Shown: one piece after another, positions 5,200 to 13,469 of the stretch
Layout: every line of letters begins with the position of its first letter
Numbering within the stretch: position 1 is the first letter of the stretch
Origin: Acidobacteriota bacterium
GTDB taxonomy: Bacteria; Acidobacteriota; Thermoanaerobaculia; Multivoradales; UBA5704
Direction: 5' to 3'
DNA length: 39,728 nucleotides
Assembly: GCA_040005235.1 (NCBI GenBank)
Contig: JBDTZG010000049.1
Location: 1 to 39,728, forward strand
Notes under the pieces: generated by a model
Database searches by the model: none
Told to the model about the DNA's origin: nothing
The model's input: the letters and a program-made list of their open reading frames with translations, nothing else
Position numbers and translations under genes: made by a program

Positions 5200-6713
5200 G
5201 CGCGTCTCCGGCCGGAACGCCGCTTTGGAGCCTCTCGGTCGAGGAGATCGCTCGGCGCGTCGCGGCGGGGGAGACGACCGCGGTCGAGGTACTGGAATCA
5301 GCGCTCTCCCGCACCGCAGAGGTCGAGCCCTCAATCGGCGCCTACCTGGAAATCTGGGCCGACGAGGCCCGCGGGCGCGCCGGGCGGATTGACGCCCGCG
5401 TCGCAGCGGGCGAACCGGTCGGCCCCCTCGCCGGGGTGCCGATCGCGCTCAAAGACAATCTGAGCTTCTCCGGGCACGCCGTCACCTGCGCCTCGAAGAT
5501 CCTCGAAGGGTACGTCGCCCCCTATACCGCGACCGCGGTCGAGCGGCTGCTCGCGGCGGGGGCGGTGCCGGTCGGCCGGGCGAACATGGACGAGTTCGCG
5601 ATGGGCTCGTCGTGCGAAAACTCCAGCGTCCAGGTCACCCGCAATCCGTGGGACCTTTCACGCGTGCCCGGCGGTTCGAGCGGCGGCCCGGCCGCTGCGG
5701 TGGCCGCGGGCTCCGTGCCGCTCTCGTTCGGCTCCGACACGGGCGGCTCCATCCGGCAGCCGGCCGCGCTGTCCGGCATCGTCGGCTTCAAGCCCACCTA
5801 CGGGCGGGTCTCGCGGTACGGGCTCGTCGCGTTCGCCTCCTCGACCGACCAGATCGGCCCGCTCGCCAAGAACGTCCGCGACGCGGGCGTCGGCTATGCC
5901 GCGATCGCCGGGCCGGACGCGCACGATTCGACCTGCGCCGACCGAGCGGTAGAAGAGCCGCTGGCCGGAATCGAAGACGGTATCCGCGGCTTGAAGATCG
6001 GCTCGTTCCGAGAGGTCGACGCCTCGGGGCTCGGCCCCGCCAACGCCCGCTGCTGGCAGGAGTCGCTCGAACGGCTGGCGCGCGCCGGGGCCGAGATCGT
6101 CGAAGTCTCGGTGCCGAGCCTTCAGGCGGCGATCGCCGTCTACTACGTGATCGCCACGTCGGAGGCGAGCGCCAACCTCGCCCGGTTCGACGGCATCCGC
6201 TACGGCCGTCGCGCGAGCGGCGCCAACAGCCTCTCGGCCACCTACGTGCAAAGCCGCAGCGAAGGGTTCGGGCCGGAGGTGAAACGGCGCATCATGCTCG
6301 GCACCTTCGCGCTCTCCTCGGGCTATTACGACGCCTACTACGGCCGTGCCCGCGCGGTGCTCGAAACCATGCGCCGCGAGCTGGACGCGGCTTTCGAACG
6401 CTGCGATCTGCTGGTTTCGCCTACCAGCCCAACCGGAGCGTTCCGGATCGGCGAGCGCTCCGCCGATCCTCTCGCCATGTACCTGTCCGACATCTACACC
6501 ACCCCCGCGAGCCTGGTCGGCCTGCCCGCGCTCGCCCTTCCCGCCGGGTTCGATGACGAGGGGTTGCCGCTGTCGCTCCAGATCACCGGCCGGCCGTTTG
6601 CCGAGGCCCAGGTTCTCCGCGCCGGGCGCGCTTTTGAAGCCACAGGGGATTGGCGGGTCGCCCCGACGTTTAAAAATCGCCCGGGCTTGGGAGTGGGGGC
6701 GATTCCGCCATGA
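5196..6713 (+). CDS. gatA: Glu-tRNA(Gln) amidotransferase subunit A
   Basis: Amidase signature: IALKDN, NMDEFAMGSS, PGGSSGG, GSDTGGSIRQPA, KPTYGRVSRYG, EVKRRIMLGTFALSSGYYDAYY. GTG start coupled to the gatC stop. Confidence 0.96.
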   Translation: MSASPAGTPLWSLSVEEIARRVAAGETTAVEVLESALSRTAEVEPSIGAYLEIWADEARGRAGRIDARVAAGEPVGPLAGVPIALKDNLSFSGHAVTCASKILEGYVAPYTATAVERLLAAGAVPVGRANMDEFAMGSSCENSSVQVTRNPWDLSRVPGGSSGGPAAAVAAGSVPLSFGSDTGGSIRQPAALSGIVGFKPTYGRVSRYGLVAFASSTDQIGPLAKNVRDAGVGYAAIAGPDAHDSTCADRAVEEPLAGIEDGIRGLKIGSFREVDASGLGPANARCWQESLERLARAGAEIVEVSVPSLQAAIAVYYVIATSEASANLARFDGIRYGRRASGANSLSATYVQSRSEGFGPEVKRRIMLGTFALSSGYYDAYYGRARAVLETMRRELDAAFERCDLLVSPTSPTGAFRIGERSADPLAMYLSDIYTTPASLVGLPALALPAGFDDEGLPLSLQITGRPFAEAQVLRAGRAFEATGDWRVAPTFKNRPGLGVGAIPP

Positions 6714-8584
6714 ACGCCCCGGGGCCGCGCTCGAATTTTCGGCGGTCGGCCGCTGCGCTCGTGGTACTGCTCGCGCTCCAGATTCCGGCGCCGCTCGCCT
6801 CCGCCGGTTCGTCGCCGGGCGGCGAGCGGCCGAAGATCGTGATCAACGGCAAGCCCGTTTCGGTCTCGGCGGGCGCACCGGCCTCCAGGTTGCTTCGCGT
6901 GCCGCTCGACGATGGGGCGTTCGTCCGCCTCGGCGAAGACCAGAACGTGGTGATCGAGGCGACGCCGAAATCGGGCGAAGGCATTCTCGGGTTCGCCCGC
7001 CGGCTGTCCGGCGATCCCCTCACCGCGGAAAAGATCACCGACAGCAACGGCGGGCGGCGCGATTTACTCTCGGGCACGCTCTATCGCGTGTCGCTCGACC
7101 TGCTGACCCCCAAGATGCGCCTGCGGGCGTTGCGCGCGCTTTTTCCCGAAGACCGGTTCGAGCCGGACAGCTGGCAGCACAAGGTTCGCGGCGTCGGTCC
7201 GTTCGGTCGCGAAAGCCTTTGGCACATCGCGACCTGGTTCACCGGCAACGGCGAGAATTTCCGCGCCATCCGCGAGCTGAACGAGCTGCCCGACGACGAG
7301 CTCGGCCGGGGAACGACGGTCGCGATCCCCGCGGAGCTGCTGGTGCCCGAGCTCCGTTCGGCCCTACCCAAGGGGGACGGCGGTTTCCGGCTCGACTACG
7401 GCAAGGACGCTTACGGCGATTTCGCGATCTACCGCCTGCGCCCGCGCGAGGCGCTCTATTCGGGCGTCGTCGTCCGCTTCACCGGGCGCATCCACGCCCA
7501 GGACGTGAACGCTCTCGCGGCGGAATTGGCGAAGCGGAACGGCATTCCCGACGTCACCGACATCCCCGTCGGCTACCGGGTGAAGATCCCGCTCGACTTG
7601 CTGCAGCCGGAATTCCTGCCGCCGGGCGACCCGCGCCGCGTGGCCTACGAAACCGAGGTCGCCGAGAGCGAGAAGTTCACCAACCCGATCCTCGCCCAAG
7701 GGCTCGAAGGAATTACCGTGATCCTCGATCCGGGCCACGGCGGCAAAGACGCGGGCGCCTCGATGGGAGGCGTCTGGGAGAGCCTCTACGTCTACGACAT
7801 CGTGATGCGCACCAAGCGCAGGCTGGAGACCCGGACGGCCGCGCACGTCTTGGTCACCACCCGCGACGGCGCCGATTTCAAAATCCACGACTCCGACGTC
7901 CTTCCCTTTTCGCGCGGCCACGCGGTCTTGACCACGCCGCCCTATCCGATCGTCGACCCAGCCTTCGGCGTCAACCTCCGCTGGTACCTGGTCAACAGCA
8001 TTTTCCGCCAGATCACCCAAAGGGTGACGAAAACCAAGAGCGGCTCCGGCGGGTCGAAAGCCAACGACGAGGACAAGGTCGTCTTCCTCTCCGTTCACGC
8101 CGATTCGCTCCACCCCTCGCTCCGCGGTGCCATGGCCTACATCCCTGCGGCCTCCCTGGGGGCAGACACCTACGGCAAATCGGGATCGGCCTACGCCGCG
8201 TTTCGCGAGGTCCAGGAAAACCCCTTCGTCAGCCTGCCGCGCGACCGGCGCACCATGTCCGAAGGCCTGTCGCGACAACTCGCCGAAAAGGTCATCGGCG
8301 CCATCGCCGCCAAAAACCTGCCGGTCCACCCGTTCAAACCCGTGCGCGAAAAAGTCATCCGCGACCAGCGCGAATGGGTCCCGGCCGTCCTGCGCTACAA
8401 CGCAGTCCCCGCCAAGCTCCTGCTCGAAGTCTGCAATCTCGGCAACGACCTCGACCGCAGCCTGATCCAAACCCGCGCCTACCGCGAAGACATCGCCACC
8501 GCGATCGTCCAAGGGCTGCTCGACTATTACGGCAAGAATTCGGCGGGCGGGGGTAGCGTGCAGGTGGCGAAGAGCGCAAAGTAG
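6710..8584 (+). CDS. Secreted N-acetylmuramoyl-L-alanine amidase (Amidase_3) with LysM-like N-terminal modules
   Basis: Signal peptide; LysM-like segments (ESLWHIATWFTG..AIRELNEL..GTTVAIP; LAKRNGIPDVTDIPVGYRVKIP); catalytic ILDPGHGGKD, ESLYV, LSVHADS, LLEVCNL. Confidence 0.85.
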   Translation: MNAPGPRSNFRRSAAALVVLLALQIPAPLASAGSSPGGERPKIVINGKPVSVSAGAPASRLLRVPLDDGAFVRLGEDQNVVIEATPKSGEGILGFARRLSGDPLTAEKITDSNGGRRDLLSGTLYRVSLDLLTPKMRLRALRALFPEDRFEPDSWQHKVRGVGPFGRESLWHIATWFTGNGENFRAIRELNELPDDELGRGTTVAIPAELLVPELRSALPKGDGGFRLDYGKDAYGDFAIYRLRPREALYSGVVVRFTGRIHAQDVNALAAELAKRNGIPDVTDIPVGYRVKIPLDLLQPEFLPPGDPRRVAYETEVAESEKFTNPILAQGLEGITVILDPGHGGKDAGASMGGVWESLYVYDIVMRTKRRLETRTAAHVLVTTRDGADFKIHDSDVLPFSRGHAVLTTPPYPIVDPAFGVNLRWYLVNSIFRQITQRVTKTKSGSGGSKANDEDKVVFLSVHADSLHPSLRGAMAYIPAASLGADTYGKSGSAYAAFREVQENPFVSLPRDRRTMSEGLSRQLAEKVIGAIAAKNLPVHPFKPVREKVIRDQREWVPAVLRYNAVPAKLLLEVCNLGNDLDRSLIQTRAYREDIATAIVQGLLDYYGKNSAGGGSVQVAKSAK

Positions 8585-8607: not shown

Positions 8608-8728
8608 GTAGGGGCCGCCTGCTAAGGGCCGAAGGCCCGGCCGATGATTGCTCAGGGCAACGCCCTGGGTGCGAATCCTCCCCTGTAACAAGCTCCCCTG
8701 TAACAAGCGGGCTCAAAAGAGCGCCTGA
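8608..8728. repeat. REP-like palindrome cluster containing a tandem 15-bp direct repeat
   Basis: Palindromes gggccgaaggccc, cagggcaacgccctg and gctcaaaagagc; ctcccctgtaacaag twice at 8678-8707. Confidence 0.55.
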
Positions 8729-8809
8729 ACCTGTGGAAGATGCGGTGAGGCGGGCGGAAGTACCCCGCCCGAAAACCGGTCAGCAATGGCCACCACAGGA
8801 GACTCGACC

Positions 8810-9019
8810 ATGAGTGAATACCAGCTGAAAAAGGCGCACCCCGGCGTGCGCTCGATGACCCTTGCCGTCAGCACCAGCACCAAATTCGAAGACCTGGTCA
8901 AAATCCTCGAGCGGACGCTGACCGTACCGGAGCTGCCCGGTGTCCGCGGCTGCGCCCCCTGTCTTTCGGGCCTGGACAAGATCTTGATCCAGGACGAAAC
9001 CCTCTCGACGATTCGCTGA
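8810..9019 (+). CDS. Putative RiPP precursor / substrate (69 aa, GCAPCLSG motif) of the adjacent MNIO enzyme
   Basis: AGGAG RBS 8 nt before ATG 8810; short ORF with a single CxxC, directly upstream of the DUF692 gene. Confidence 0.75.
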   Translation: MSEYQLKKAHPGVRSMTLAVSTSTKFEDLVKILERTLTVPELPGVRGCAPCLSGLDKILIQDETLSTIR

Positions 9020-9076
9020 TTCTCCCTCCGCCCGCTCACCGCCCCCTTCCGCGTGGGACCGAGAGGAGAAGCCGCG

Positions 9077-10000
9077 ATGTTCAACGATTCGAACGCCATT
9101 GCGAAGCTGGGAGTCGGACTGGCCTATCAACCCGCTCTGCGTCCGTTTCTCGAATCCCGAGGCGACGCGTTCGACTATCTCGAAGTGGTACCCGACATCC
9201 TCTGGACCGATCTCGGCGCCGGCAAGAGTCCCCGTTACCTCGACGACTCCGCCGGCATCGATTTTCTGCGCCGCGTGGCCGCCGGGCGGCCGGTCGTACC
9301 GCATGGCATCGGCCTGTCGATCGGCACGGCGCATCGATTCAACCGCGGCCAGCTCGACCAGATCGAAAAGTGGCACGGCTGGTTCCAATTTCCCTGGCAC
9401 AGCGATCACCTGGCCTGGAACCTCGCCGAGCATGGAGTCGACGAGCTGAACGTCGGCGTGACCCTGCCCCTGCCCCGCGATCAGGAGACGCTCGATGCCC
9501 TGGCGCCCCGGGTGGCCGAGGTGCAGCGCCGGCTACCGGTGCCGTTCCTGCTCGAAAACAACGTCTACTTCTTCTCGATGCCGGGCGAGACGATGAGCGA
9601 CGCCGAGTTCTTGAACGCCCTGTGCGAACAGACCGGCTGCGGGCTCCTGCTCGACCTGCACAACGTCTACTGCAACGCCAGGAACCACCAAACCGATCCC
9701 TATCGCCTGCTGGGAGAGCTGGATCTTTCAAACGTGGTCGAGATCCACGTCGCGGGCGGCATGGAGCACGAAGGCTGGTATTTGGATGCCCACTGCGGCC
9801 CGCTGCCCGAGCCGGTCTGGCAGCTGCTGCGCTACTGCCTGCCGCGCTGCCCTAACCTCGGAGGCGTCACGTTCGAAATGCTCGGCTCCTGGTTCGTCGA
9901 GATGGGGAGCGAGCGCTTGGCTCAGGAGCTCACCGCCCTGCGTGAAGCCTGGCATCGCTGGCAGCCGGTGCCGAGGCACCTGGCCGAGGTGGCGGCATGA
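9077..10000 (+). CDS. DUF692 / multinuclear non-heme iron oxidative enzyme (MbnB/TglH/ChrH family)
   Basis: AGGAG RBS before ATG 9077; family motifs GVGL, YLEVVPD, PHGIGLSIG, SDHL, LLEN, LLLDLHNVYCN, EIHVAGG, LDAH, VTFE. Confidence 0.93.
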   Translation: MFNDSNAIAKLGVGLAYQPALRPFLESRGDAFDYLEVVPDILWTDLGAGKSPRYLDDSAGIDFLRRVAAGRPVVPHGIGLSIGTAHRFNRGQLDQIEKWHGWFQFPWHSDHLAWNLAEHGVDELNVGVTLPLPRDQETLDALAPRVAEVQRRLPVPFLLENNVYFFSMPGETMSDAEFLNALCEQTGCGLLLDLHNVYCNARNHQTDPYRLLGELDLSNVVEIHVAGGMEHEGWYLDAHCGPLPEPVWQLLRYCLPRCPNLGGVTFEMLGSWFVEMGSERLAQELTALREAWHRWQPVPRHLAEVAA

Positions 10001-10602
10001 GCGCCCCGGTCTTTCAGGCGCTCTTCGCCCGCCTGGTGATCGATCCCGACTTTCGCGACGACGTGCGGGAGCGGGGAGCGGCGGCGCTTCGGGAAGATCT
10101 GACCGACCTCGAACGGGAGCGGCTGCTGTTCGTCGCCGCCGATCCCGGAATGGACGTCACCCGCACGCTCCACAAGGGATTCCGGCTCAGTAAGCTGATG
10201 GGCCAGCTGCCCCTCACCTGCGCCGCGCTCGGCAAAGAGGCGCTCGCGCGCGAAGTCGCCGAGTTCTGGCGCCGGAACCCGCCGGTGAGCTTCTACTACC
10301 TCGCCGAGGCCGTCTCCTTCTGCGACTTTCTCGCCGCCCGGTTGGAGGAGGGGATGGAACCTGCCACCCCCTACCTCGCCGAAGTCGCAGCCTGGGAACG
10401 CGCCGGCCTGGAGCTGCAACGCCCGCGACCGGAGGGCGAATCGCCGCCGCTTCAGGTGGTCGAGTTCATCCACGACCCTCTGCCGCTGCTCGCCGCCCTC
10501 GGCCGCGGCGAGCCGGTCGATCCGACCGAGCGACCCTGCCTGATGATCGGCGGCTACGACGGCGGCAAGGTCGAGTGGCGGCTGGCAGACGCCCCGGTCT
10601 AA
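9997..10602 (+). CDS. MNIO partner protein (DUF2063/HvfC-like, predicted precursor-recognition subunit)
   Basis: ATGA-coupled to the MNIO gene. FQALFARLV..LPLTCAALG..FWRRNPP..EAVSFCDFL..PYLAEVAAWERA matches the usual pattern of DUF692-adjacent partners. Confidence 0.75.
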   Translation: MSAPVFQALFARLVIDPDFRDDVRERGAAALREDLTDLERERLLFVAADPGMDVTRTLHKGFRLSKLMGQLPLTCAALGKEALAREVAEFWRRNPPVSFYYLAEAVSFCDFLAARLEEGMEPATPYLAEVAAWERAGLELQRPRPEGESPPLQVVEFIHDPLPLLAALGRGEPVDPTERPCLMIGGYDGGKVEWRLADAPV

Positions 10603-10641
10603 GCGGAGGAGACTCCGGTCTAGGCGGAGGCTCCGGTCTAG
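10585..10641 (+). repeat. Three in-frame tandem copies of the partner gene's last codons plus stop
   Basis: GCA GAC GCC CCG GTC TAA / GCG GAG GAG ACT CCG GTC TAG / GCG GAG GCT CCG GTC TAG. Confidence 0.8.
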
Positions 10642-10776: not shown

Positions 10777-13161
10777 ATGCGTACGTTTTCGCTTCCTGCT
10801 CGGCTCGTCGTCGTCGTCCTTCTGTTCACCGGCTCCCTTCAAGCTTCCGCCGCCTCACCGGTCCACGTTCTCTTCCGCGAGGTTTCAATCGCGCGCTTCT
10901 CCGCCGAGCGACCGCGGGACCTCTTTCCCGCAGCCTTCCGCGCGCTGGCGCTGGAACCGGACGCGCTCCAATCCGCTCTCCGTGACGTGCCGTCCGAGGC
11001 CGACTTTTTAACCGGAACCTCTGCACCCACCTGGGTGCTGCCGAATCCAGAGGGAACGGCCTCGCGGTTCGCCGTGGTCGAGGCCCCGATTCTTGACGAA
11101 GCGCTCGCCCGGAAGTTTCCGGAGATTCGCACCTTCCGCGGTCAGGGGCTTTCCGATCCGGCGGAAACCTTGATCCTGGACGTCTCGCCGGCCGGCCTTC
11201 ACGCGATGGTCCTTTCTCCGCGCGGCACGATCCTCGTCGATCCGGTGGCCAACGGCGACGACGTCCATCACATTGTCTATTTCAAGAAGGACGCGGCCAA
11301 GATCGACGGTCCCTTCTCCTGTCACGATCAGGAGCTTCCCGACGTTGCCGACGTGAGCGCCTTCTCGGAGTCTCGTCCGGGCGGCGAACTCCCTCGGCTT
11401 CGGGTCGGCGGCAACCTCCGCACCTACCGGACGGCGATCGGAGTCACCGGCGAGTATTCCGCGGCGGTCTGCGCGCCCGCGGCCGCTGCCGTGCCTTGCG
11501 CGCTCTCCGCCGTGGTGACCGTGCTGAATCGGGTCGACGGCATTCTCGAGCGCGACGCCTCGGTGCGGATGGTCCTTGTCGCGAACGAGAACCTCGTGAT
11601 CTATACCGATCCTGCGACCGACTCTTATACCAACGCCAGCCTGAATACGATGCTCGTCGAGAACCAGTCCAAACTCGATACGGTGATCGGCACGAGCAAC
11701 TACGATTTCGGGCATGTCTTCGGGACCGCGGGAGGGGGCACCGCATACATCGGGGTGGCGTGCAACCCGACCTACAAGGCCCAAGGCGCCACCAGCTTGG
11801 TCCATCCGCTGGGAGATCCCTTCAGCGTCGATTACGTCGCGCATGAGATGGGGCATCAGTGGGGAGCGCGCCATTCGTTCAACGGCACGACGGACGGCTG
11901 CGTGTTCCGCGACGCCTCCTACGCCTACGAGCCGGGCAGCGGCTCGACGCTGTTGTCCTACGCCGGGCTCTGCGGAGCGGAGATGCTCCAGCTTCACCAT
12001 GACGACTACTATCACGCGACCAGCCTGGATCAGATTTTCCTGTTCGTGAGCGCCGGTGGGTCCATGTGCGGCACCGCCACCCCGAACGGCAACGTGCCGC
12101 CGGTGGTGACCGCGCCCGTCTCGTACATCATCCCGATCAAAACGCCGTTCGCCCTGACCGGAAGTGCCACCGACGCTAACGGCGACGTGATGTCTTACGC
12201 CTGGGAGGAGACCGATCTCGGCTCGCCGGGTCCTCCCAACGACGACGTCGCCGCGGAGCGGCCGATCCTGCGCAGCTTTCCTCCAGCGACCGTTCCCACG
12301 AGGACGTTTCCCAAGCTCTCCGATCTCCTGGGCAATGTCGCCACGCTCGGCGAATCGCTGCCCACCCGCACGCGAAACATGTTCTTTCGCCTGACCGTTC
12401 GCGACAATCGGATCGGCGGCGGCGAGGTGACCTTCGGCAACACGAAGGTGACGGTCCAGGCCAGCTTCGGGCCGTTCGCCGTCACGAGTCCGAACACCGC
12501 CGTCATCTGGCCCGCTCTCTCGTCGCAGACCATCACCTGGAACGTCACCGGCACCAACGTCGCGCCGGTCAATTGCTCCAACGTGGCGGTCACCTTGTCG
12601 ACCAACGGCGGCAATACTTTCCCCCTGACGCTCTTGGCTTCCACTCCGAACGACGGCTCCCAAGCGGTCACCCTGCCGAACCTGGCGACAACGAAAGCCC
12701 GGATCAAGGTCGAATGCGTGGGAAACATCTTTTTCGACGTTTCCAACGCGAACTTTTCGATCACCGGCGGGCCTGTGGCGGGCACGAACTTTTACACCCT
12801 CGTTCCTTGCCGCTTGTTCGACACCCGCGACCTCGCGTCGCCGACCGCGGGCGCGCCGCTTACGCCCAACACCCTCACCACCTTCAAGGTCGGGGGCAAG
12901 TGCGGCCTGCCGCTTCTGGCGACCGCCATGTCGGCGAACGTCTCGGTGACGCTGCCGACAGCCGGCGGCGCATTCAAGTTGTTCGCTGGCGATCTCGTCG
13001 CGGTGCCGACCGCCACGACCCTTTCCTATTCCACCGGCCAGACCCGCGGGAACAACGCGATCGTTTCTCTTTCGCTAGACGGTGCGGGGAACATCAAGAT
13101 CAAGAACGAGTCGGCCGGCAGCGCGCACATCATTGTCGACGTCAACGGCTACTTTCAGTAG
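10777..13161 (+). CDS. Secreted reprolysin-like (M12B) zinc metalloprotease with C-terminal beta-rich domains
   Basis: Signal peptide, prodomain, LRTYRTAI, YDFGHVF, HEMGHQWGARHSFN (HExxHxxGxxH), EPGSGSTLLSYAG; C-terminal FYTLVPCRLFDTR...IIVDVNGYFQ domain. Confidence 0.9.
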   Translation: MRTFSLPARLVVVVLLFTGSLQASAASPVHVLFREVSIARFSAERPRDLFPAAFRALALEPDALQSALRDVPSEADFLTGTSAPTWVLPNPEGTASRFAVVEAPILDEALARKFPEIRTFRGQGLSDPAETLILDVSPAGLHAMVLSPRGTILVDPVANGDDVHHIVYFKKDAAKIDGPFSCHDQELPDVADVSAFSESRPGGELPRLRVGGNLRTYRTAIGVTGEYSAAVCAPAAAAVPCALSAVVTVLNRVDGILERDASVRMVLVANENLVIYTDPATDSYTNASLNTMLVENQSKLDTVIGTSNYDFGHVFGTAGGGTAYIGVACNPTYKAQGATSLVHPLGDPFSVDYVAHEMGHQWGARHSFNGTTDGCVFRDASYAYEPGSGSTLLSYAGLCGAEMLQLHHDDYYHATSLDQIFLFVSAGGSMCGTATPNGNVPPVVTAPVSYIIPIKTPFALTGSATDANGDVMSYAWEETDLGSPGPPNDDVAAERPILRSFPPATVPTRTFPKLSDLLGNVATLGESLPTRTRNMFFRLTVRDNRIGGGEVTFGNTKVTVQASFGPFAVTSPNTAVIWPALSSQTITWNVTGTNVAPVNCSNVAVTLSTNGGNTFPLTLLASTPNDGSQAVTLPNLATTKARIKVECVGNIFFDVSNANFSITGGPVAGTNFYTLVPCRLFDTRDLASPTAGAPLTPNTLTTFKVGGKCGLPLLATAMSANVSVTLPTAGGAFKLFAGDLVAVPTATTLSYSTGQTRGNNAIVSLSLDGAGNIKIKNESAGSAHIIVDVNGYFQ

Positions 13162-13286: not shown

Positions 13287-13469
13287 CTAACAACCACAAG
13301 TATGGGATGCGGGCTCTCGGGGGCAAAACAGCGGGTCGCTGAAACTGCACACTGGGCCGCACGACCCTGTGCAGGCCGCCCCCAGTGTTGCAACCCCTAC
13401 TGTTGCGGACAGACTCCCATTCCTTATCGTCTCCTTCGCCAACGCAAGCTTCTTGACCCGCTTCTTCAT
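13287..13469 (-). CDS. 60-aa Cys/Ser/Thr-rich peptide, lanthipeptide-precursor-like
   Basis: GAGG RBS; MKKRVKKLALAKETIRNGSLSATVGVATLGAACTGSCGPVCSFSDPLFCPREPASHTCGC, i.e. a KKLxLxKET leader and a core with 6 Cys. Confidence 0.75.
   Translation of the reverse strand: MKKRVKKLALAKETIRNGSLSATVGVATLGAACTGSCGPVCSFSDPLFCPREPASHTCGC

Follow-up and report, generated by a model that had tools for sequence, protein, structure and literature searches.

What kind of product does an MNIO (DUF692) enzyme make from a small protein that has no secretion signal and an internal CxxC motif? The question is raised by a locus on contig JBDTZG010000049.1 of an Acidobacteriota bacterium (GCA_040005235.1), all 39,728 nt of which were analysed and are called the window below. 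Three + strand open reading frames (ORFs) lie there in series and encode a 69-aa small protein, a 307-aa MNIO and a 201-aa partner protein (coordinates in Table 1). This trio is a conserved MNIO cassette of the RiPP (ribosomally made peptide with post-translational modifications) type, sister to a family that has been named only in silico. The small protein is very probably the substrate of its MNIO.

The locus had been singled out in an earlier note, made from the DNA letters, as a compact operon with ribosome-binding sites (RBSs) and ATGA coupling, whose 69-aa substrate lacks a signal and has just two Cys, both in RGCAPCLSGLD. That description holds: AGGAGA precedes each of the first two genes, which start with ATG at 8810 and 9077, and the partner start at 9997 overlaps the MNIO stop through ATGA. 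The two Cys are residues 48 and 51, with 18 residues C-terminal of Cys51, and nothing like a hydrophobic signal segment is present (hydropathy over 11 residues peaks at 1.0 within the N-terminal 40 aa). The small protein has no Pfam or NCBIfam match and 34 matches in the protein collection, its own sequence counted. Compared with eight relatives of equal length, the base changes in the small ORF fall mostly on third codon positions (218 of 367) and the changed codons are mostly synonymous (170 of 281), and it is clearly a real gene.

The linkage between small protein and enzyme was examined from both directions. A precursor-first search of species-representative genomes gave 51 loci, in Thermoanaerobaculia, other Acidobacteriota, Xanthomonadales, Burkholderiales and Actinomycetota, with an MNIO match directly downstream in 50 and the partner in 48. 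The exceptions are two loci that end at contig edges (L009, L016), one with an internal deletion (L030) and two with a frameshifted MNIO (L045, L047). By our own start calls, the ATGA overlap recurs in 41 of 48 loci, and exactly two Cys are present in 51 of 51 precursors. The enzyme-first search took the best 80 of 441 confirmed metagenome MNIO loci, at 46-92% identity, and found an upstream [C/H]xxCxSG ORF in 71 of them (59 distinct enzymes at 90% identity); the same test succeeded at 7 of 2000 random genome positions. Eight of the nine misses have less than 160 bp of upstream DNA, leaving L126 as a true miss. Searched against 1.84 billion representatives, the precursor profile returned 48 proteins, including one false match due to low complexity. 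The ORF is thus conserved beside homologous MNIOs with its GCxxCxSG motif, as the earlier note had supposed it might be. Some loci are rearranged: the L030 deletion (8188-8500) fuses the MNIO start to the partner end and leaves the precursor gene in place; L041 reads MNIO and partner in one open frame (915-2387), either a fusion like that of adjamnio-7 (below) or an assembly indel; and in L047 the precursor gene is present a second time in near-identical form (5480-5626, - strand), this copy not being followed by an MNIO.

Nothing else travels with the three genes. No transporter or protease is encoded inside the unit, and no conserved fourth gene (exporter, protease or metal gene) emerged from clustering the flanks of 52 regions or from Pfam scans of 178 flanking ORFs, which were chosen by length and many of which are shadow frames; the earlier claim that no exporter or protease accompanies the cassette is borne out by the same data. 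Flanking genes vary by lineage (TPR, kinase, NUDIX, purD, FMN reductase, cysteine dioxygenase and others). The cassette is self-contained and occurs at many sites. Lineage-limited neighbours include, immediately upstream in Marilutibacter-type loci, a gene for cysteine dioxygenase (L019:4436-5029, L029:7024-7617) and, in some Burkholderiales loci, a divergent FMN reductase (upstream in L016, L021, L025 and L028). In the window, an M12B reprolysin-like metallopeptidase gene (10777-13161, +) lies 174 bp 3' of the partner gene; flank clustering and Pfam scans did not find it beside relatives, which have YceD, RHS or methyltransferase genes there instead.

The enzyme is an MNIO by its match to PF05114 (196.9 bits, cut-off 25) and it also matches 8hci_D (E 3.9e-20), yet it falls under every NCBIfam equivalog cut-off for the family: BufB 163.1/310, ApyH 131.1/400, HvfB 131.1/360, ChrH 73.1/600 and MbnB 23.7/325. 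It therefore belongs to no characterised equivalog, in agreement with the earlier note; BufB, at about half its cut-off, is the best-scoring characterised model, and HvfB is among the best. Judged by the family pattern, nine residues probably act as iron ligands (H76, H111, E160, D193, N196, H224, D237, H239 and E267). All nine are intact in the window and, in an alignment set that contains redundancy, in 138 of the 139 rows of full length. A degenerate MNIO at L055:1444-2415 has lost three of the nine and has no upstream precursor, a single natural negative. On plasmids, 514 records matched, all below 60% identity, and the four inspected were other cluster types. In a Bacillus plasmid cluster (L178:1663-5562), genes for an S8 peptidase, an MNIO and an ABC transporter accompany those for two GCGTGC peptides of 44 aa. 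A Burkholderia plasmid (L179:3710-8909) combines a 77-aa ORF, rich in Ala and with multiple Cys, with genes for a divergent MNIO, a radical SAM protein and two proteins with methyltransferase domains; its MNIO is also below all NCBIfam MNIO cut-offs (ApyH 76.7/400).

Is this an unlisted kind of MNIO system? Antoine et al. 2025 gave the in silico name adjamnio-7 to CxxC precursors that lack a signal and accompany the MNIOs of cluster 7, with WP_078758616 as the representative and WP_078758615 as its MNIO (PMC12452194). Two of our matches, P0276 and P0269, are identical to WP_078758616 and WP_078758615, respectively. As in the window, a signal-less small protein with CxxCxSGxD lies upstream of the MNIO. 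The precursors are 29% identical over 52 residues and their profiles weakly homologous (hhalign 84%, E 7e-6, 48 columns), and in a profile comparison the C-terminal domain of WP_078758615 corresponds to the window partner (96.9%, E 1.4e-10). There are also differences: the window MNIO is only 34% identical to WP_078758615, below the threshold of about 40% for membership of cluster 7 in the sequence-similarity network; the adjamnio-7 partner is fused to the MNIO (472-480 aa in the rows read), whereas it is separate and ATGA-coupled in the window; and the family is missing from the 48 matches of the window precursor profile.

We explored these relationships with a tree of 48 rows, hand-picked from 78 that had been thinned from 171 at 75% identity; it omits the frameshifted L045 and L047, window duplicates and the short L076, and has no characterised TglH, ApyH, ChrH or MbnB sequence among its rows. 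All CxxC-linked MNIOs, those of adjamnio-7 included, form one 33-row clade (support 96/93), apart from TIGR04222-linked and bufferin-type enzymes. Within it the adjamnio-7 rows are a long-stemmed group (100/100), and the window's own group of 27 has moderate support (82-87/87-89). Judging from these sequences, no characterised member was identified in the window MNIO's clade.

In the accession table of PMC12452194, four of six window-family MNIOs appear, each only in the Fig. 7B column for PME-type 2; within that table, none of the four stands in a numbered cluster (7, 1-3) or named-precursor column, and six further window-family accessions were not found there. Nor do window-family MNIOs appear in the cluster 1 and 2 columns, so that membership of adjamnio-1 or -2 finds no support, as judged from the MNIO listings alone; the representatives of clusters 1 and 2 themselves appear in four sheets each of the supplement. 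The window-family enzymes had thus been surveyed with their precursor family left unnamed, and the cassette is therefore a sister of adjamnio-7. We rejected strict identity with adjamnio-7 given the 34% MNIO identity, the fused partner, the absence from the cluster 7 list and the separate branch. The earlier proposal of a distinct MNIO subfamily stands as far as the branch and the low identity go; its novelty in kind does not, because a homologous signal-less CxxC family had already been named in silico. We found no experimental study of the window family or of adjamnio-7 in the literature, a result on which subscription papers and the supplementary alignments of PMC12452194 may bear, and none of the papers listed for a general motif term contained the motif strings specific to the precursor. 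Background was also drawn from bioRxiv 2025.01.10.632315 and PMC13097082.

The partner is the 'PME-type 2' of Antoine et al. 2025, as its structural model indicates: it has the TglI/NGO1945-like fold without a DUF2063 match (15.8 bits, cut-off 27.2). The model is confident (predicted local distance difference test score, pLDDT, 94), and it resembles 8hi7_A of TglHI (Foldseek E 3.5e-6), the TglHI partner chain 8hci_C (VIA Z 14.1, root-mean-square deviation 3.6, 193 aligned) and 3dee_A, NGO1945 (VIA Z 9.6).

With this fold, with the MNIO match to 8hci_D and with a signal-less substrate in both, the window system recalls TglHI. The Cys that TglH targets is C-terminal; in the window family it lies inside the protein, a tail of 14-33 residues (median 18) following the second Cys, and no PEARL ligase is nearby. 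TglH excises the Cys beta-carbon ('carbon excision in thiaglutamate', PMC13174530). The captophorins and bufferins, 5-thiooxazole copper chelators made by BufABC, HvfABC and FonABC, share the order precursor-MNIO-partner with the window. They differ from it in MNIO clade and cut-offs, and the window has no Sec signal, no DUF2282, EGKCG, 6-Cys or 12-Cys precursor, no DUF2063 above cut-off and no DoxX. The same genome has a second MNIO operon (L082, G000:C104:84559-88341) whose BufB-type enzyme does exceed the cut-off (359.7/310); ahead of it is a Cys-rich precursor with, by eye, a twin-arginine-like leader.

The precursor family itself offers a clue to the reaction. G-C-x-P-C-L-S-G is invariant across the close family in alignments made without a motif filter, and the x positions vary among wider relatives. 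Precursors of about 45-55 aa (L053, L143, L147, L148) retain the motif and tail only, and in L143 two of these short precursors, differing in sequence, are arranged in tandem upstream of position 2500. Tandem copies are frequent among RiPP precursors. The motif had been taken for a two-Cys site; the first Cys, however, can be His. This is so in 2 of 71 enzyme-first loci (the other 69 have Cys) and, among the 159 unique precursors, in four (L054, L094, L163 and, in adjamnio-7, L170). The His codons are CAT or CAC, two bases away from a Cys codon, and the four precursors belong to separate parts of the MNIO tree. Among enzyme-linked precursors none lacks the second Cys, which the pooled count demanded by design. 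In metal binding, Cys and His can stand in for one another. The His-first variants thus suggest that the first position is retained to bind metal and that it is the second Cys that is oxidised; the second Cys is the probable target.

A reading that combines these points, to which we give an even chance, is a minimal RiPP-type cassette in which Cys51 is oxidised, residue 48 is kept as a metal ligand and the product is a mini-protein that stays whole in the cytoplasm. Enzyme and TglI-like partner would, as family and fold suggest, form a complex and bind the small protein. The iron cluster and O2 would then oxidise Cys51, most likely via a thioaldehyde, and the thioaldehyde could proceed to a four-electron (-4 Da) heterocycle such as 5-thiooxazole. 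Residue 48 (Cys, or His in some relatives) would not react and would bind metal next to the altered Cys. DybH first oxidises the second Cys of its CxxC, to a thioaldehyde, a step proposed to be common to MbnB, TglH and BufB (PMC13733907). A thiooxazole, which is what BufB makes, is the most likely single outcome, one we hold tentatively and at somewhat less than even chances. Since there is no signal peptide, protease or exporter, the product would stay in the cytoplasm, intact, with a [C/H]-x-x-C*-x-S-G metal site (C*, the modified Cys), and would probably buffer metal under stress; we are evenly divided over a metal-binding role. Co-folding of the three proteins, which the earlier note had put forward, lends weak support to precursor binding. 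With the precursor on MNIO, partner and 3 Fe, the score was 0.35 against 0.00 for the best control (runs 0.46, 0.06 and 0.35), with contact agreement of at least 36% and partner pLDDT of at least 37. Of 157 solved complexes 116 pass the mark, as do 2 of 215 mismatches; with scores of 0.60 or less, only 18 solved complexes pass, together with both mismatches. Because TglHI-type complexes have already been solved, the pass may reflect likeness to them.

Several observations weigh against this reading. The second Cys, Ser and Gly were fixed by the search pattern in the 159-sequence count, for which the unbiased figure is 71 of 72 testable enzyme-first loci, and two protein-only matches of unknown context (P0209, P0237) lack the second Cys. 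The more distant L057 and L059, whose MNIOs branch beside the adjamnio-7 group, have signal-less GCxxCG(R/L) precursors in the same layout without the Ser-Gly. In P0207, an N-terminal leader that looks twin-arginine-like by eye precedes the usual domain, so the product is not always cytoplasmic; the leader suggests that a folded product is exported in one lineage. The His-first variants are rare and could be inactive or give a different product. BufB chemistry is not transferable, given a score of about half the cut-off and a grouping apart from bufferin-type MNIOs. Genes for copper handling, metal export, DoxX, sigma factors or NrsF are not conserved next to the cassette, and so nothing in the neighbourhoods hints at the metal handling that the earlier note had tentatively put forward. 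The precursor model is of low confidence (pLDDT 61). A fold search using it was uninformative (best Z 2.5), and matches in the ESM Atlas, all sub-0.9 and dynein-like, were taken as chance.

One alternative to a single oxidised Cys is suggested by the chryseobasin enzymes. By convergence, the window MNIO could act as ChrH or DybH does, oxidising the second Cys to a hydantoin-type ring with the following backbone, the first Cys then closing a thioether macrocycle. The spacing C-x-x-C-x-x-G is common to both motifs (CPACGMG and CAPCLSG), the second Cys is in both the likely first target, and the first position is Cys in nearly all enzyme-first loci, as given above. Enzymes of the ChrH family are, moreover, able to act on a motif embedded in its protein (ArlA) and on large proteins (PMC13056109). 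The 307-aa window enzyme, though, scores far below the ChrH cut-off and lacks the C-terminal helical extension, is encoded with a separate TglI-like partner, and has a putative substrate without signal or lipobox in which the motif is internal and reads CAPCLSG rather than CPxCGxG, the +1 position being mostly Leu, Arg or His and not Gly. In DybH the first Cys closes the ring last, and Ala or even Ser there led to glutathione adducts instead (PMC13733907). His at the first position in four lineages offers no thiol for ring closure, and if these variants are active there is no ChrH-type Cys-Cys macrocycle. We consider this chemistry unlikely.

Somewhat less unlikely is a new reaction that uses the Ser at +2 (for instance cross-linking of Cys and Ser, formation of formylglycine by desulfuration, or cleavage of the backbone) and yields a protein-derived cofactor, not a simple chelator. 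All 71 enzyme-first matches have Ser-Gly at +2/+3, which is also invariant in alignments A1, A2 and A5, and the enzyme sits in a clade with no identified characterised member; small MNIO clades have repeatedly yielded new reactions (PMC13174530). The Ser-Gly may, on the other hand, be a recognition or turn element only, it is absent from L057 and L059, and no direct evidence points to any such product.

The small protein might, finally, be no substrate at all: as an accessory subunit, its CxxC would donate electrons or iron to the MNIO, and the true substrate would be encoded elsewhere. CxxC and HxxC are classic redox or metal motifs, the N-terminal strand and helix are conserved as in a folded domain, and neither protease nor exporter is present. 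The very short versions that lack the strand-helix part and the tandem copies are hard to fit to such a subunit, there is no other conserved candidate substrate nearby, and precursor-MNIO-partner is the usual MNIO substrate gene order (PMC12452194). We regard the accessory role as highly improbable and retain the small protein as substrate, with Cys51 as the probable site of oxidation. A search of the window's own genome by motif or profile found no further substrates, and a single 11-residue match on viral contigs was dismissed.

Upstream of the precursor gene, alignment revealed an element that probably serves as a promoter of the extracytoplasmic function (ECF) sigma type (Table 1). Its GTAAC and CGCC are both invariant in 10 of 10 aligned upstream regions, and GTAAC-N16/18-CG occurs in 14 of 123 upstream regions, mostly of Thermoanaerobaculia, against about 3 expected from shuffles. 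The window-type element, TGTAAC-N16/17-CGCC, resembles the Caulobacter sigma-F site GTAACC-N16-CGAA (PMC3511200), and the genome has an NrsF-family anti-sigma gene (L182, G000:C42:68567-69160) beside a probable ECF sigma gene (sigma by eye). We considered and rejected co-regulation with the genome's bufferin operon, and claim no regulon, because the pattern occurs genome-wide at chance (18 versus 16.6 expected) and was not found before the C104 operon or in the sigma/NrsF locus. A sigma-70 promoter scan gave 0 sites. An exact 15-nt tandem duplication (8678-8707) takes in the TGTAAC element, and a weak Rfam match to Acido-Lenti-1 RNA lies at 8625-8669 on the - strand (25.3 bits, gathering cut-off 37, E 0.0056).

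Table 1. Features of the cassette and its upstream region, in window coordinates.
Feature	Position	Strand	Basis
Conserved element TGTAAC-N17-CGCC, probable ECF-sigma-type promoter	8699..8725	+	upstream alignment
RBS AGGAGA of the precursor gene	8797..8802	+	sequence; purine-rich site kept among relatives
Putative MNIO substrate, 69 aa, signal-less; beta-strand, helix, GCAPCLSGLD motif, beta-strand tail	8810..9019	+	sequence comparison, low-confidence model
Core motif G-C48-A-P-C51-L-S53-G54-L-D; modification proposed at C51, ligand role proposed for C48	8948..8977	+	
RBS AGGAGA of the MNIO gene	9064..9069	+	sequence
MNIO (DUF692, PF05114), 307 aa, with nine candidate iron ligands	9077..10000	+	Pfam, family pattern
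Partner, 201 aa, TglI / PME-type 2 fold	9997..10602	+	model, fold searches

Two features lie downstream of the cassette. Short direct repeats follow immediately 3' of the partner stop (10594-10640), and a 60-aa ORF on the - strand (13287-13469) has a basic leader and six Cys within its Ser/Thr-rich C-terminal half, which we take to resemble a lanthipeptide-type precursor. A longer reading of that frame has no Pfam or NCBIfam match.

The MNIO subfamilies investigated to date have tended to differ in the peptide reaction that they carry out, each an unusual one, and adjamnio-7, named only in silico, is now tied to a larger unnamed sister group. The cassette is minimal, with three genes and no tailoring enzymes, and occurs in Acidobacteriota, Pseudomonadota and Actinomycetota, cultured strains among them; the natural Cys-to-His variants and the 45-aa minimal substrates make its mechanism directly testable. 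It is a good target rather than a surprise in kind. If the favoured reading is true, this would be a characterised MNIO product that remains in the cytoplasm as a protein. A bolder possibility, which we regard as doubtful, is that the window's clade and adjamnio-7 together form a widespread MNIO branch that makes a new protein-derived cofactor in a cytoplasmic mini-protein, by an unseen reaction involving the invariant Ser-Gly, with the cofactor paired with the unmodified Cys or His. If so, the product would be an intracellular metal or redox site, a cytoplasmic counterpart of the exported captophorins.

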